Position numbers and translations under genes: made by a program. A stretch of DNA of 64,000 nt from Patescibacteria group bacterium. Its GTDB lineage: Bacteria > Patescibacteriota > Minisyncoccia > Phycocordibacterales > JACOZG01. Below the pieces are notes generated by a model that saw only the letters and a program-made list of their open reading frames with translations, did no database searches and was not told the DNA's origin. How positions within the stretch are numbered: the stretch's first letter is position 1; each line of letters opens with the position of its first letter. This document shows positions 5,219-48,442 of the stretch, piece by piece. Location of the stretch: NCBI GenBank assembly GCA_038064435.1, contig JBBTTC010000004.1:3615-67614 (forward strand), given 5' to 3'.

Positions 5219-5522
5219 TCTTGATCTTACCGATCAATACTGGTTTAACAGCAATCTGGCCAGCGCGCGAGCGCGGCGCGGCGGCGACGAGTTCCTCGTC
5301 GCCAGCCGCGGCTGGCACCGCCGGGCCGGCCAAGTCATCATCACGCCAAACATTCTTTAGTCGCAAATCGATGCTAGTTCCAGACTCCACGCTGATCGCC
5401 TTGAGTTGATCAACGTAGTCAAGAACAGCGCCGAGATCTTTTTGCCAAGCGACTTTGCCATCGTCAGTTACCCGCAAGCGTGACAATACCACCAACTTTT
5501 TAATGTCATCCGACGAAATCAT
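5202..5522 (-). CDS. gatC: Asp/Glu-tRNA amidotransferase subunit C
   Basis: About 100 aa, GatC-like, overlaps the gatA start. Confidence 0.8.
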   Translation of the reverse strand: MISSDDIKKLVVLSRLRVTDDGKVAWQKDLGAVLDYVDQLKAISVESGTSIDLRLKNVWRDDDLAGPAVPAAAGDEELVAAAPRSRAGQIAVKPVLIGKIKNETRS

Positions 5523-10681: not shown

Positions 10682-10713
10682 CCCCTCATTCTATCGCTTG
10701 CCAGCGCTAATCT

Positions 10714-10740
10714 CACTGTCAAGGACGATCCTTGACAGTG
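10714..10740. repeat. REP-like 27-nt palindrome cactgtcaaggacgatccttgacagtg (copy 1)
   Basis: 12-bp perfect stem with 3-nt loop; identical copy at 11438..11464; overlaps the 3' end of the RAYT ORF. Confidence 0.85.
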
Positions 10741-11405
10741 GAATACTCGATCCAATCGGAAACGAATTCCTGAAACTCATGCGCTTGATTAAAGTAATCT
10801 GGAAAATTTTTGTTGCCCGACAAGATTGAATCCGATGGTCGGGGCCTATCTCTATAGTAGGCGTAACTTGAATATTCATATTTATCAAGAAACTGTTGAG
10901 CAAATCTGGCGTCAATTATTATCTTGCTCTCCCAATTATGCGGATCAACTGTTTTCACGGGATTAAGATGAATATACGCAAAAAGATATTTAAGATACTC
11001 GTTATTATCAATATGGCTAGCTTTAAAAGTACCCTCGAACAAACTACCGCTTCGATTCTGCTTTTTATTGAAGTACATCGAGTATCCAGTTAAAAGCTTT
11101 TTCATAAAAATTGTCACACCATTATCGTCTTTTGCCCTTACCAATAAATGAAAATGATTGGGCATTAAACAGTAGGCCCCAATATCAACCATTTTTTCGC
11201 CGAACGATCTTGACCACAGATGGCTAATTGTCAAGGACGATCCTTGCCAGTCGCTGAGATGCACTGTTTGACGAAAATTTGCCACATGAAGCAAAACAAG
11301 AAAGCGAAGGTAGTCGCCATGGCCTAAAAATATTTGCCGACGATCGGTACCGCGATTGTAGAGATGATAATACTGGTCAGTAGCAAAAGCTGTTTTTCTT
11401 TGCAC
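10719..11405 (-). CDS. REP-associated tyrosine transposase (RAYT, IS200/IS605 TnpA-like Y1 HuH)
   Basis: HuH motif YCLMPNHFHLLV and conserved Tyr region; flanked by REP hairpins. Confidence 0.8.
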   Translation of the reverse strand: MQRKTAFATDQYYHLYNRGTDRRQIFLGHGDYLRFLVLLHVANFRQTVHLSDWQGSSLTISHLWSRSFGEKMVDIGAYCLMPNHFHLLVRAKDDNGVTIFMKKLLTGYSMYFNKKQNRSGSLFEGTFKASHIDNNEYLKYLFAYIHLNPVKTVDPHNWESKIIIDARFAQQFLDKYEYSSYAYYRDRPRPSDSILSGNKNFPDYFNQAHEFQEFVSDWIEYSTVKDRP

Positions 11406-11437
11406 AAAATAATTTTAACACCTCCCTATCGATAAGT

Positions 11438-11464
11438 CACTGTCAAGGACGATCCTTGACAGTG
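11438..11464. repeat. REP-like 27-nt palindrome (copy 2, identical)
   Basis: Exact repeat of 10714..10740, upstream of the RAYT gene. Confidence 0.85.
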
Positions 11465-11480
11465 GGCGCAGGAAAACAAA

Positions 11481-11504
11481 AACCCCGTGAGGGGTTTTTG
11501 TGGC
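11481..11504. terminator. bidirectional intrinsic terminator-like hairpin
   Basis: aaaaaccccgtgaggggttttt: GC stem with A- and T-runs on either side. Confidence 0.5.
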
Positions 11505-11554
11505 TGTGTCAGGACAGTGCGCTCGTGTGTCCGAAAGGACGGTCCTTGACAGTC
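11500..11554. repeat. degenerate REP-like elements
   Basis: gtcaggacagtg ... aaggacggtccttgacagtc, partial matches to the REP consensus. Confidence 0.5.
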
Positions 11555-19788: not shown

Positions 19789-19832
19789 AAAATGTGTTAG
19801 GTTGATGATCGTTACAGAGATAATTGAGCAAT

Positions 19833-19919
19833 GGAGAGTTGGCTGAGTGGTCGAAAGCGCCTCACTGCTAACGAGGTAGGGGGTTACTCCCCTCGTGGGT
19901 TCGAATCCCACACTCTCCG
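19833..19919 (+). tRNA. tRNA-Ser (anticodon GCT)
   Basis: GGAGAGT acceptor, long variable arm, anticodon loop CTGCTAA, T-arm GGGTTCGAATCCC. Confidence 0.85.
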
Positions 19920-19925
19920 AACGCA

Positions 19926-19941
19926 GTCCGCGGCGGCGGAC
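19926..19941. repeat. GC-rich hairpin gtccgcggcggcggac (variant of the recurring 16-nt palindrome)
   Basis: Seven nt past the tRNA-Ser 3' end; related copies at 36110, 36491 and 39377. Confidence 0.7.
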
Positions 19942-20111
19942 AAGTGAGGAGAGTGAGCGAGCCAACTGCTTGGCTCGCGTTGGGATTCGAACGGCGGAGT
20001 GCTCGATTTTTATCAAAAAATCGGCACGAGCCGGTGCCCAGACCGATCCGCCTTGGGCGGAGAGAGTCGCGGGCGAATCCTACGCATTTCGCGTCAATTA
20101 AAATACACGCC

Positions 20112-30118: not shown

Positions 30119-31096
30119 ATGAACAAAGATGAATTATTGCGTGAATTGGCGTTAAAAATTAGCACGGGCGAGATAAATCGCGAGGAGGTTACCCGCAGTC
30201 TCGGCGGGTCCGCCGCGGCGGATCTAGGCGAGCCAGCAACTCCGGCTCCACACATCGGCTTAACCAAGTGGTTTTATTGGTTGGGCGGCATTATCGCCAT
30301 CGTGGGTATTATTCTTTTTGTTGGTCAGTTTTGGGACGATTTAGGTTCAGCGGCGCGCATCATCGTCACTCTCGGTTTTGGTTTAATCTTGGCTGCCACT
30401 GGCTCGATGCTACTAAAACAAAAACCAAACCAAATGATCGGCTCAATCTTCCACACCTTGGGCGGTTTACTGATTCCGGGTGGAACCATGGTGCTGTTGT
30501 ACGAGCTAGATGTAGACTTATCAACTCTCTGGCCAATTACCATTAGTTTTGGCTTGATATTCGTTTTTTACTTGGCATTAGCGGCCGCGCATAAACGTCC
30601 GATTCTAACTTTCTTTGCCGTCGCCAACGGCACAACTTTCGTCTATCTGCTGATAGAATCACTGATCGAGGGCCGCGCCTACGAGCACGAAAATCTTTAT
30701 GCCTATCTCACCATGATCGTGGGTATAACCTACCTCCTGCTGGCCCAACAATTCAGCCGCGGTTGGAATAAGCAACTGGCCGGGCTATTTAATTTCTTCG
30801 GCAGTGCTGGTTTTTTGGCCGCGGCCGGCTCGCGCATCCCTGACTCGGTACCGTGGCAACTAATTTATGTTCTGTTCGTCTTGGCCATGTTGTTTTGGTC
30901 CATTCGAGCTAAGAGTCGAGGAATTTTGGCTGTTAGCACCATCGCCCTACTGGCGTACATTGGTTTTATTACCCAAGAATACTTCGTTGATTCCATCGGG
31001 TGGCCAATCGCTTTGATAATCCTTGGTTTTGTCTTTATTGGTCTTGGCTACGCTTCAATCAATATCAGCAAAAAATACATTCAGGCCGCCAATTGA
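30119..31096 (+). CDS. polytopic membrane protein (DUF2157-like)
   Basis: 325 aa, soluble N-terminal segment then about 8 TM helices. Confidence 0.45.
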   Translation: MNKDELLRELALKISTGEINREEVTRSLGGSAAADLGEPATPAPHIGLTKWFYWLGGIIAIVGIILFVGQFWDDLGSAARIIVTLGFGLILAATGSMLLKQKPNQMIGSIFHTLGGLLIPGGTMVLLYELDVDLSTLWPITISFGLIFVFYLALAAAHKRPILTFFAVANGTTFVYLLIESLIEGRAYEHENLYAYLTMIVGITYLLLAQQFSRGWNKQLAGLFNFFGSAGFLAAAGSRIPDSVPWQLIYVLFVLAMLFWSIRAKSRGILAVSTIALLAYIGFITQEYFVDSIGWPIALIILGFVFIGLGYASINISKKYIQAAN

Positions 31097-36036: not shown

Positions 36037-36109
36037 GCTAAAATATTATTTTGCCTTTCATCATATCATAATCTATAGTGAAGAGCGAGGCGCGTCAGCA
36101 CGTGTAGCT

Positions 36110-36124
36110 CAGCGGTAGAGTCCG
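36110..36124. repeat. GC palindrome tccgccgcggcgga inside a partial tRNA copy
   Basis: Follows a 25-nt exact copy of the tRNA-Ile 5' end (36088..36112) and precedes ATACACGCC (the anticodon-stem 3' strand). Confidence 0.7.
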
Positions 36125-36156
36125 CCGCGGCGGATACACGCCATTTGCGTTAAAAT

Positions 36157-36399
36157 ATGTTTACGGTATATATTTTACAAAATCAAGTCGGAAAATTGTA
36201 TACTGGCCAAACAAAAAACTTTGAAACAAGGCTAATCGAACATAATGTGACTGGTCATGGCTATACTGCTAAACATCGCCCATGGAAGGTGGTGCTGATG
36301 GAAAAATACCAGAATCGCACCGAAGCGATGAAACGAGAAAAATATCTGAAAACTGGGGCGGGGCGCGACTGGATAAAAAGACAATTATTGCACGTGTAG
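36157..36399 (+). CDS. small GIY-YIG nuclease family protein (UPF0213/YhbQ-like)
   Basis: VYILQNQVGKLYTGQTKNFETRLIEHN fits the GIY-YIG core; stop codon lies inside the tRNA 5' end. Confidence 0.7.
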   Translation: MFTVYILQNQVGKLYTGQTKNFETRLIEHNVTGHGYTAKHRPWKVVLMEKYQNRTEAMKREKYLKTGAGRDWIKRQLLHV

Positions 36400-36461
36400 C
36401 TCAGCGGTAGAGTAGGCGTCTTATACACGCCCGGTCCCTGGTTCGAATCCAGGCACGTGCA
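36390..36461 (+). tRNA. tRNA-Ile (anticodon TAT, predicted to read AUA)
   Basis: Cloverleaf: acceptor GCACGTG/CACGTGC, anticodon stem GGCGT/ACGCC, loop CTTATAC, T-arm CCTGG-TTCGAAT-CCAGG. Confidence 0.7.
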
Positions 36462-36490
36462 TCCTACAAAAAGACCAGTTCGATGGTAGA

Positions 36491-36505
36491 GTCCGCCGCG
36501 GCGGG
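36491..36505. repeat. GC palindrome gtccgccgcggcggg, flanked by a D-arm-like segment and an acceptor-like segment
   Basis: GGTAGAGT-CCGCCGCGGCGG-GCACGTGCA lies 30 nt past the tRNA-Ile 3' end. Confidence 0.7.
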
Positions 36506-36513
36506 CACGTGCA

Positions 36514-38947: not shown

Positions 38948-39322
38948 GGGGATGATCGGCCTCGACATTTAGTGTTGCTGGTTCGGGCAGGTCGAGTTCT
39001 CTGGATACTCGTTAAACACCGGAAAAGCATAAGTGTAAACTTATCGTCTACGGGTAGTCGGGGTGTGGCTTCGCCATATCCTGTTACCCCCTCTTTCGCC
39101 TTAGGCTAAAGAGCATCAGCGCTGGAGACTTCCGATATCTGGACGCTGGTGTTATATCTTCGGGATAGTTGGCGCGACGCCTCGGCGCGCTGGCGAACCA
39201 TAGAGGCACAGATCGGGCGGGTTTTGACTGTTCGGCCCCGCTCGAACTTAATTAAACAGTCTAAGCTTGTAGATCGCACCACTAACCCTATTTGCACCCG
39301 GGTTCGATTCCCGGCATCTCCA
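38948..39322 (+). ncRNA. ssrA: tmRNA (ssrA)
   Basis: 5' GGGGATGATCGGCCTCGAC and 3' GGGTTCGATTCCCGGCATCTCCA pair into a tRNA-like domain; directly downstream of smpB; CCA not encoded; tag frame not resolved. Confidence 0.7.
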
Positions 39323-39338
39323 CTCATTAAAACATTAG

Positions 39339-39368
39339 CGTCCTTCGGGGCGCTTTTGTTTTTTGAGT
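39339..39368 (+). terminator. intrinsic terminator for tmRNA
   Basis: agcgtcc-ttcg-gggcgct hairpin followed by tttgtttttt. Confidence 0.6.
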
Positions 39369-39376
39369 GGAGATGA

Positions 39377-39392
39377 GTCCGCCGCGGCGGAC
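39377..39392. repeat. perfect 16-nt palindrome gtccgccgcggcggac inside an inverted partial copy of the tmRNA 3' end
   Basis: Minus strand reads T-arm-like CGGCGTTCGATTCCCGG, then the palindrome, then acceptor CATCTCCACTC (39369..39412). Confidence 0.7.
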
Positions 39393-39502
39393 GTCCGGGA
39401 ATCGAACGCCGGAGCGAGCGAAGGTGAGCGAGGCGGGGTCACGACCGCCGCGAGTACGCGGCGAGTTGTGACCGATTCCCCCATTCGAGCTAAAATAACC
39501 CC

Positions 39503-48223: not shown

Positions 48224-48246
48224 GTCCTAATTCTAACAGAGAAAAT

Positions 48247-48286
48247 GAAAACCCGTTCGTCAGCCGCGGCTGACGAACGGGTTTTC
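48247..48286. terminator. bidirectional intrinsic terminator
   Basis: aaaacccgttcgtcagc-cgcg-gctgacgaacgggtttt: perfect 13-bp stem with A- and T-runs on either side. Confidence 0.65.
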
Positions 48287-48442
48287 ATTACCGGTTACTT
48301 GGAGGAAAGACTAACTAAAATAAGGTGGGTTCCCGCAAAGACAAGCCACGGCTCGCCCTATTTTAGGATCCCGATTAAAGATCGTTAGGTCCCCCAAATA
48401 ACCTACCCTAATTATACCCCCGCCACACAATCAAGCAAATAA

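Follow-up and report, generated by a model that had tools for sequence, protein, structure and literature searches.

In the 64,000-nt stretch of contig JBBTTC010000004.1 analyzed here (the window), the tRNA-Ser and transfer-messenger RNA (tmRNA) genes are each followed by a non-coding, structured segment that carries antisense copies of the T-arm and acceptor strand of the gene and ends in a direct repeat of its 3' end. On balance, we favor reading these two flanks as small non-coding, structure-dependent insertion modules that home to the 3' ends of tRNA and tmRNA genes. They apparently represent an undescribed module family that is widespread behind tRNA and tmRNA genes of Parcubacteria. Rfam recognized only tRNA and tmRNA in the window and in the loci of 23 relatives, with no match to the modules even at E values up to 5, and no description of the element was found in full-text literature searches, in which the hairpin sequence itself was included. 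The order of parts is X1, linker hairpin, antisense acceptor strand, hairpin H, antisense T-arm, helices P3 and P4, and X2, with a module size of ~120–170 nt. X1 denotes the 3' part of the gene, from T-loop position 57 to the gene end, and X2 denotes the distal direct repeat.

The window has a GC content of 0.498, and its sequence matches that of a contig from Hainich aquifer groundwater. Its RNA genes (ARAGORN, Rfam) are those for tRNA-Asp, two tRNA-Met, tRNA-Ser(GCT), tRNA-Ile(TAT), and tmRNA. The SmpB protein encoded in the window was at most 62% identical to that of any species representative, and its top matches were Parcubacteria/Paceibacterota-type bacteria of the Candidate Phyla Radiation (CPR).

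Modules downstream of tRNA-Ser and tmRNA

Each RNA gene was aligned locally with its own 300-nt flanks, and the scores were compared with those of 200 shuffles. Inverted matches were in excess only in the downstream flanks of tRNA-Ser (z 3.8) and tmRNA (z 4.6), with one of 200 shuffles as good in each case. The 300-nt flanks of tRNA-Asp and of the two tRNA-Met genes showed no such excess. The original prediction, which had named a shuffled-alignment test of this kind, described inverted copies of the T-arm and acceptor strand behind tRNA-Ser and tmRNA; these copies were confirmed, and the minus-strand readings quoted for them were correct. It had also counted four occurrences of this composite architecture in the window. 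This count did not hold, as the inverted layout is present at two loci only. The palindromes near tRNA-Ile lie in direct, patchwork tRNA pieces that belong to the insertion of a GIY-YIG cassette (see below).

A covariance model (CM) was derived from the RNAalifold alignment of 14 modules. When the 64 kb were searched with this model, with filters off, exactly two significant matches were obtained, both on the plus strand. The match at 19945–20092 (138.9 bits) was a member of the training set, whereas the match at 39365–39492 (50.9 bits, E 7e-14) was not and was found with a model from modules of other organisms. The flanks of tRNA-Ile gave no match at E values up to 10.

All parts of the first module lie on the plus strand. 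The tRNA-Ser(GCT) gene (19832–19920; ARAGORN, Rfam tRNA 58.1 bits), whose 3' part is X1, is followed by the linker hairpin GTCCGCGGCGGCGGAC (19926–19941). This imperfect palindrome forms the apical hairpin of the fold-back between X1 and the antisense copy, and no T-run follows it. The antisense acceptor 3' strand GGAGAGTG (19948–19955), read from the sequence as an 8-nt seed, precedes hairpin H GCGAGCCAACTGCTTGGCTCGC (19957–19978), which has 9 bp and a CUGC loop. A scan of metagenome contigs with CGAGCMAACTGCTTKGCTCG gave at least 119 exact-match stretches for this hairpin. The antisense T-loop and T-stem 3' strand GTTGGGATTCGAAC (19979–19992) contains a 12-nt exact inverted match and corresponds to the 5' strand of helix P2 in the CM alignment. 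The core (19992–20074) comprises P3 (~19992–20033) and P4 (~20036–20074), with a minimum free energy fold at z −5.3 and covariation in helices 4–9. The module ends with X2 (20075–20093), a degenerate repeat of the tRNA-Ser 3' end (GAATCCTACGCATTTCGCG), which was assigned as the 3' strand of P2 from the CM alignment and from perfect X2 copies in relatives.

The second module, also on the plus strand, follows the tmRNA gene (38948–39325; ARAGORN, Rfam 114.5 bits), with X1 at 39306–39325. Its linker is a terminator-like hairpin with a T-run (AAAACATTAGC..GCTTTTGTTTTTT, 39337–39364), which was detected in a terminator scan and whose sequence is conserved with the module elsewhere. The antisense tmRNA acceptor 3' strand and trailer GAGTGGAGATGA (39365–39376) was recognized by sequence reading. 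The position of hairpin H (CM positions 13–34) is occupied by the perfect palindrome GTCCGCCGCGGCGGAC (39377–39392). The antisense tmRNA T-arm GTCCGGGAATCGAAC (39393–39407), a 17/18 inverted match, forms the 5' strand of P2 in the CM. The core (39407–39473) comprises P3 (~39407–39435) and P4 (~39437–39473), the latter ending with GTGACC, as placed by the CM. X2 (39474–39490) is a shortened tmRNA 3'-end repeat, GATTCCC..CCA, supported by the CM alignment and by comparison with module-free loci. The next letters, TTCGAGCT, are similar to the native trailer TTCGACTC of module-free loci. Because X2 is degenerate in both modules, both are probably old.

The 3' edges of the modules (39468–39496 and 20099–20111) run into a TAAAAT box located 6–7 nt before the ATG of the next gene. 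At the tmRNA module, GTGACC and TAAAAT were joined into one promoter-like site by the scan. Promoters of short-leader mRNAs may be provided by the modules or overlap with them.

The GC palindrome as a local variant

The palindrome from which the original prediction started is not the hallmark of the modules. Exact copies of the 14-mer GTCCGCCGCGGCGG are located at 30208, 36120, 36491, and 39377, and the copy at 19926 has one mismatch. Of the four positions named at first, 36491 and 39377 are thus exact and 19926 is near-exact, but the copy placed at 36110 is really at 36120, and the copy at 30208 had been missed. Each copy was also said to lie within 60 nt of an RNA gene. This is so at 19926 (6 nt after tRNA-Ser), 36491 (27 nt after tRNA-Ile), and 39377 (~52 nt after tmRNA), but not at 36120, which is 269 nt upstream of tRNA-Ile, yet sits within a partial tRNA-Ile copy. 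The additional copy (30208–30223, plus strand) is in the coding sequence of a DUF2157 membrane protein, in a hypervariable linker (GGSAAAADLG). A net insertion of the palindrome into this gene was unsupported, as homologues are equal in total length.

Ordinary terminators or chance GC-rich motifs have next to no probability as an explanation of the palindromes. GC-rich hairpins are indeed found near gene ends, and the 16-mer is common in GC-rich viral DNA, but no copy is followed by a T-run (the next letters are AAGTGA at 19942, ATACAC at 36134, GCACGT at 36505, and GTCCGG at 39393). The terminator scan reported only 39337–39364, the true tmRNA terminator, which is a hairpin separate from the palindrome copies. 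Ordinary intrinsic terminators were therefore rejected, in agreement with the original prediction. Against chance, GTCCGCCGCGGCGG with up to two mismatches had 20 strand matches versus 0.89 expected, a number equaled by none of 100 shuffles, and of the four exact copies, three are located in sequence derived from tRNAs or next to it; some of the two-mismatch matches are coding sequence or unrelated terminators.

The bare 16-mer was not specific: it had 76 sites in GC-rich viral contigs, none of them within 150 nt of a tRNA. Outside the lineage of the window, the palindrome is an ordinary GC-rich 16-mer. Stems of the GTCCGCC..GGCGGAC type also form the tip of P4 in other members of the module family (loci L015 and L068), and a hairpin resembling them directly follows X2 in L148. 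Because the same stems recur at these other places, the palindrome is one of the interchangeable GC hairpins of the family, a local variant and not a defining feature. In the window genome, a hairpin of this type replaced H in the tmRNA module and the linker hairpin in the tRNA-Ser module. H itself was replaced by the palindrome in the tmRNA module only, and the tRNA-Ser module keeps H.

A further palindrome is located at 48244–48289 between convergent open reading frames (ORFs). It is perfect over 46 nt and has the core GTCAGCCGCGGCTGAC, which is two mismatches from the GTCCGCCGCGGCGG motif, and it looks like a bidirectional terminator.

Secondary structure and covariation

RNAalifold of the 14 modules gave H, P2 (antisense T segment with X2), P3, and P4, with compensatory changes in 26 of 40 pairs. 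Covariation statistics were computed on a 73-sequence alignment fitted to the CM, with shuffles and slid alignments as controls. Pairing was retained in 92.5% of cells versus 67.2% in shuffles, a value that is inflated by fitting to the CM. Changes on both sides occurred in 37 of 40 pairs, and the covariation score was 0.535, compared to 0.146 in shuffles and at most 0.082 in slid controls. Helix 1 (H) was paired in 99.8% of cells, with an A-U to C-G swap at one pair.

GU/UG pairs outnumbered AC/CA pairs by 61 to 33 overall and by ~39 to 9 in internal helices, a bias that CM scoring itself favors. The tmRNA module folded at −71.7 kcal/mol on the plus strand (z −5.5) and at −57.6 kcal/mol on the minus strand. 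The GU excess and the better plus-strand fold point to a predicted structure of the tRNA strand, either as RNA or as top-strand single-stranded DNA. A minus-strand gene, the orientation in which the original prediction had read the modules, is disfavored by the GU:AC ratio and by the 14 kcal/mol weaker minus-strand fold of the tmRNA module.

In a competing fold, the antisense copy pairs with X1, so that the linker hairpin forms the apex and H branches off from the stem. When the gene 3' end was folded together with its flank, as had been suggested, this fold-back reached −82.7 kcal/mol (z −10.2) for tmRNA and −63.5 kcal/mol (z −8.1) for tRNA-Ser. In many relatives, the X1/antisense palindrome is perfect over 25–30 bp, the neutral trailer included. 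Where the X2 acceptor is decayed, the antisense strand agrees with the real tRNA at 11 informative positions versus 1, in an X1-anchored and thus biased alignment. The acceptor-like helix P1 is absent or imperfect in many members. A kissing interaction between the loops of H and P3 (CUGCU with AGCAG or AGUAG) could be drawn in many members but not in the tRNA-Ser module of the window, and this candidate was dropped.

Distribution of the module family

The conserved hairpin H of the family is GCGAGCMAACTGCTTKGCTCGC. Among the 82 metagenome matches listed, 57 had hairpin H 5–72 nt behind a tRNA or tmRNA gene; in all of these, the hairpin shared the strand of the gene and had a constant orientation. 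Modules were found at genes for tRNA-Gly, -Val, -Lys, -Pro, -Tyr, -Trp, -Ser, -Cys, -Arg, -His, -Asp, -Met, -Glu, -Leu, -Thr, and -Gln. A further set of 50 loci from other species, anchored on SmpB (L015–L064), contained the same layout, with a ~90-nt GC-rich spacer and X2, at the tmRNA genes of L015 and L028 and at tRNA-Ile of L019, which raises the count to 17 tRNA identities besides tmRNA. The hairpins of L028 and L019 are nearly identical to GCGAGCCAACTGCTTGGCTCGC of the window. The CM search of 169 other loci gave 149 matches, of which 95 were within 130 nt after a tRNA or tmRNA gene on the same strand and 11 were at contig edges; these frequencies are biased, as the fetched loci were chosen for carrying hairpin H. 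Of the originally proposed family of miniature tRNA-copying elements, the family itself stands, with homologous modules behind at least 17 tRNA identities and tmRNA in numerous contigs of Parcubacteria, while the 16-nt palindrome does not characterize it.

X2 spans from T-loop position 56/57 to the gene 3' end, and its left boundary is directly 3' of the T-loop tetranucleotide GTTC. It agrees with the gene at 13 or more of 16 positions in 34 of 57 modules and perfectly in 21. The modules thus close with a directly repeated tRNA 3' end, a feature of the att type that the original prediction had excluded. The distance between X1 and X2 is 70–200 nt, with no ORF between them. The antisense T segment mirrors the cognate T-loop even when this is unusual, such as TTCAAAT, or TGCAAGTCGTG in a tRNA-Met. 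Some modules lie inside tRNA clusters with spacers of 2–3 nt (L075, L110, L111).

Among 80 linkers, a terminator-like hairpin with a T-run was present in 29 and a GCGAAGC/ACGAAGT mini-hairpin in 14 (1.1 expected); the two never occurred together. The d(GCGAAGC) sequence forms an unusually stable DNA mini-hairpin, and linkers of this type hint at a structure at the DNA level.

Evidence for insertion

At the module-free tmRNA loci L020 and L021, the gene runs straight into the trailer TTCGACTC...CTCATGGTAAACC. The same trailer is found behind X2 in L174, and a recognizable TTCGAC/TTCGAG follows X2 in L015 and in the window. Because the native trailer follows X2 at occupied loci and the gene at empty loci, these comparisons show the module to be an insertion relative to orthologous module-free loci. 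The linker AAAACATTAGC-hairpin-GCTTTTGTTTTTT accompanies the module in the window, L015, L106, and L077 and is not present at module-free tmRNA loci.

The occurrence of modules is patchy. Only three tRNA or tmRNA genes with a module were found in the 50 SmpB-anchored loci. The tmRNA genes of L015 and L028 carry a module, but those of L026 and L027, which are from the candidate phylum of L028, and those of about ten other loci do not. Near-identical tRNA-Gly genes are followed by different core classes (L066 versus L107), and modules form tandem arrays in L068, L086, L096, and L117. Together with the degenerate X2 copies of the window, these features are compatible with a unit that spreads and decays.

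The neighborhood was surveyed by a Pfam scan of 115 ORFs downstream of modules. The 25 families listed included neither Phage_integrase nor HUH families, and rve had two matches only. UPF0102/YraN genes adjoin tRNA-Pro with its module in L071, L079, L158, L168, and L124. This family was considered as the mobilizing nuclease and set aside, as it recurs only beside tRNA-Pro, probably as a result of conserved synteny.

Five independent assemblies end at positions corresponding to 39314–39387 of the window (tmRNA T-arm and 3' end, linker terminator, palindrome), and one ends at 36488. Assembly ends at the tmRNA 3' end and the palindromes suggest strain heterogeneity or assembly trouble at fold-backs.

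The tRNA-Ile locus and GIY-YIG cassettes

The intact tRNA-Ile(TAT) gene (36389–36464, plus strand; ARAGORN, Rfam), which has a rare anticodon, is preceded on the same strand by a displaced copy of its positions 1–43 (36098–36142; direct alignment score 52, z 18.6). This copy consists of tRNA-Ile positions 1–24, the palindrome core (36120–36135), and positions 35–43, so that the palindrome core stands for the 5' side of the anticodon arm. An 80-aa GIY-YIG nuclease ORF (36157–36399, plus strand; Pfam PF01541, E 1.7e-15) lies between the copy and the gene and has its stop codon inside the start of tRNA-Ile. Downstream of the gene, a patchwork at 36478–36513 (plus strand, read from the sequence) contains a D-arm-like piece, the palindrome core (36491–36504), and the acceptor strand GCACGTGCA. 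Within it, GGTAGAGTCCGCCGCGGCGG is an exact 20-nt direct repeat of 36114–36133 at a distance of 371 nt (repeat family D4). The tRNA-Ile palindromes mark a related event, the insertion of a GIY-YIG cassette that duplicated the 5' part of the tRNA.

GIY-YIG genes have a similar position elsewhere. In the fetched loci, 10 of 12 GIY-YIG ORFs were at most 220 nt from a tRNA or tmRNA gene or at most 40 nt from a module. The cassettes often lie between direct repeats of 18–45 nt (L106, L082, L118/L156). In L082 and L118/L156, the cassette is located 37–38 nt after the module, and the flanking repeat in L118/L156 consists of the last 13 nt of the module plus X. In PMC2330249, SegB is described as a free-standing GIY-YIG homing endonuclease whose gene resides in the tRNA cluster of phage T4, and the likeness is that of a small GIY-YIG gene among or against tRNA genes. 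In contrast to SegB, the protein of the window is an 80-aa predicted catalytic domain without a DNA-binding domain, and its cassette lies between duplicated tRNA segments.

A second module type was observed upstream of tRNA genes. It consists of a copy of the first 19–52 nt of the tRNA, hairpin H, another conserved spacer, and the intact tRNA (L178, L168, L076, L065, L103, L171). It is the analogue of 36098–36142 in the window.

Interpretation and alternative explanations

Under the favored reading, the module would spread as a selfish unit. The intact tRNA 3' end and the terminator would be kept beside the gene, as in tRNA-integrating islands, and a redundant second 3' end (X2) would be left behind, the native copy being either X1 or X2. 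Selection would maintain the folded top strand, as RNA or single-stranded DNA. The sequence-invariant hairpin H is a putative protein-binding site, and the antisense segments beside it may pair with the T-arm and acceptor strand of the target and in this way define it. Several points weigh against this reading. The modules are without a consistently adjacent transposase, integrase, or other enzyme gene, and the reading does not account for the fit of the antisense copy to each new target. Presence/absence polymorphism was not found in the Hainich population, where strains are identical across the modules in the comparison that the original prediction had suggested. Hairpin H had no match in 2.9 million viral contigs, and carriage by phages was rejected on this basis. 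The strong structural conservation could equally be compatible with a host-beneficial function, and the choice of loci by hairpin H and the use of CM-fitted alignments bias the frequencies and the pairing statistics given above. A more far-reaching reading, to which we give only tentative weight, is a nucleic-acid-guided mobile element or a small catalytic RNA. Here the antisense segments would act as programmable guides by pairing with the T-arm and acceptor strand in the gene or the transcript of a tRNA, insertion would take place at T-loop position 56/57 of almost any tRNA, and P3/P4 would provide the scaffold or the chemistry, possibly with a GIY-YIG nuclease.

The main rival is a host-beneficial RNA co-transcribed with the tRNA, which we consider possible but not probable. 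The antisense segments, X2, and H would then build a tRNA-like minihelix of the acceptor/T type, from which H would project at the point where a real tRNA has its D and anticodon arms. Such an RNA could be a processing mark for RNase P or RNase Z, a decoy or protector of the 3' end, or a small RNA with a tRNA-like end. The constant location on the tRNA strand, the modules inside tRNA clusters with their minimal spacers, the strong covariation with GU bias on the tRNA strand, and the plus-strand folds (z −5.3 and −5.5) are all in line with it. However, the tRNA and the module are separated by a terminator-like hairpin and T-run in 29 of 80 linkers, including that of the tmRNA in the window. In addition, P1 is often missing or imperfect, and the X2 acceptor decays while the antisense strand still fits the real tRNA. 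Patchiness across orthologous loci, tandem arrays, and different core classes behind the same tRNA also argue against a host RNA.

The two remaining explanations derive the modules from other events at tRNA genes. An origin as relics or cis-mobilizable remnants of tyrosine-integrase islands at the T-loop sublocation, with X1 and X2 as attL and attR and the rest as decayed island ends, is improbable. In tDNA islands, the gene stays intact and a displaced piece of it, reaching from the T-loop to the 3' end, forms a direct repeat (PMC4383910). The modules show this signature, and tandem accretion fits as well. Nevertheless, the elements are only 120–170 nt long and have no integrase between the repeats, with Phage_integrase not among the 25 listed neighbor families. 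An integrase normally has a single tRNA gene as its site, but the same core is found behind at least 17 different tRNAs. Moreover, the compensatory changes indicate selection on structure and not decay, and att sites have no antisense copy of the target. Still less credible are repair scars, in which a GIY-YIG or other nuclease would cut tRNA genes, followed by fold-back or template-switch repair at the terminator palindrome, with the hairpins as filler. The position of 10 of 12 GIY-YIG ORFs beside a tRNA, tmRNA, or module, the cassettes between 18–45-nt duplications, and the long near-perfect palindromes of X1, linker, and antisense copy centered on the linker hairpin would suit such scars. 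However, repair would not be expected to give many organisms the same 150-nt core, with its conserved helices and invariant hairpin, and most modules have no GIY-YIG gene nearby.

Two further candidates were rejected. Group I introns occur in tRNAs of Patescibacteria (PMC13011429), but a group I intron in the T-loop is not supported here, as the modules gave no Intron_gpI match at E values up to 5 and the tRNA in front of the module is complete as it stands. When 12 orphan modules were spliced in silico, no genuine spliced tRNA resulted; the matches in L102 involve an already intact tRNA-Met. A primer-binding site of the retroviral type was discarded, as the antisense copy complements the gene trailer and not CCA and reaches T54.

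Comparison with known systems

The modules share with tDNA islands (Islander-type), as characterized in PMC4383910, the tRNA/tmRNA 3' target, the retained intact gene, the displaced 3' direct repeat, and the tandem accretion. In contrast to these islands, they are ~150 nt long and non-coding, with no integrase or kb-scale cargo between the repeats, and their covarying core, one and the same at 17 or more tRNAs, is accompanied by an antisense target copy.

Miniature inverted-repeat transposable elements (MITEs), repetitive extragenic palindromes (REP/REPIN), and palindromes associated with HUH enzymes are likewise small, non-autonomous, and rich in hairpins. Interrupted terminal inverted repeats, as in MITE or REP elements, could be seen in the antisense copy and X2, but these repeats are target sequence, and 95 of 149 matches are linked to a tRNA or tmRNA. 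The ends of IS608 have a protein-binding hairpin flanked by short target-pairing segments; by analogy, the modules have one conserved hairpin, possibly protein-binding, between target-pairing segments. HUH elements (IS200/IS605, IS91) insert 3' of a fixed tetranucleotide with no duplication, and the module boundary after GTTC fits this, but a duplication is present. Unlike HUH and REP elements, the modules are, in the loci covered, tied to tRNA 3' ends and apparently not dispersed over the genome. They have direct repeats of 17–20 nt, and their antisense segments are far longer than known 4-nt guides. RAYT, TnpA, TnpB, and Y1/Y2 transposases were not among the 25 families listed for the 115 neighboring ORFs.

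Like tRNA-like structures (the tRNA-like domain of tmRNA, viral tRNA-like structures, and mascRNA), the modules can form a coaxial acceptor/T helix from the antisense strand and X2, with a hairpin branching off at the 7/49 junction and a 3' strand that is genuinely that of a tRNA. They differ from these structures in that a 90-nt domain of two helices takes the place of the T-loop, the acceptor helix is frequently missing, and Rfam gives no match.

Parcubacteria have some of the smallest bacterial genomes, and a sizeable share of their tRNA and tmRNA genes bear a ~150-nt structured appendage that is not described in the databases and literature searched. If selfish, the module would be able to target tRNA genes of nearly every identity with no enzyme gene next to it. 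The origin of the antisense copy for each new target would then be in question, and a guide-like mechanism would be of biotechnological interest. If beneficial to the host, it would point to an unknown step of tRNA expression or processing in the CPR. In practical terms, displaced tRNA fragments and long fold-backs can mislead tRNA annotation, and the fold-backs may break assemblies.

Other tRNA-derived and palindromic sequences

Behind the tRNA-Asn gene of Saccharibacteria lies a partial copy of the gene in direct orientation (L048, 6730–6830; L056, 6580–6690), which has a conserved ~52-nt insertion in the T-loop. It may be a different relative of the tRNA-tail module phenomenon. In L168 (~5290–5480) and on the minus strand of L103 (~250 nt downstream of the module at 317–384), 5' halves of tRNAs are followed by TTTACCCCGTTAGAAAT. 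A whole tRNA is nested there between 18-nt inverted repeats within another tRNA-like gene, and these structures may be intron-containing or split tRNAs. In the window, an unrelated 27-nt palindrome, CACTGTCAAGGACGATCCTTGACAGTG, occurs in four copies within 850 nt (10713–11553).

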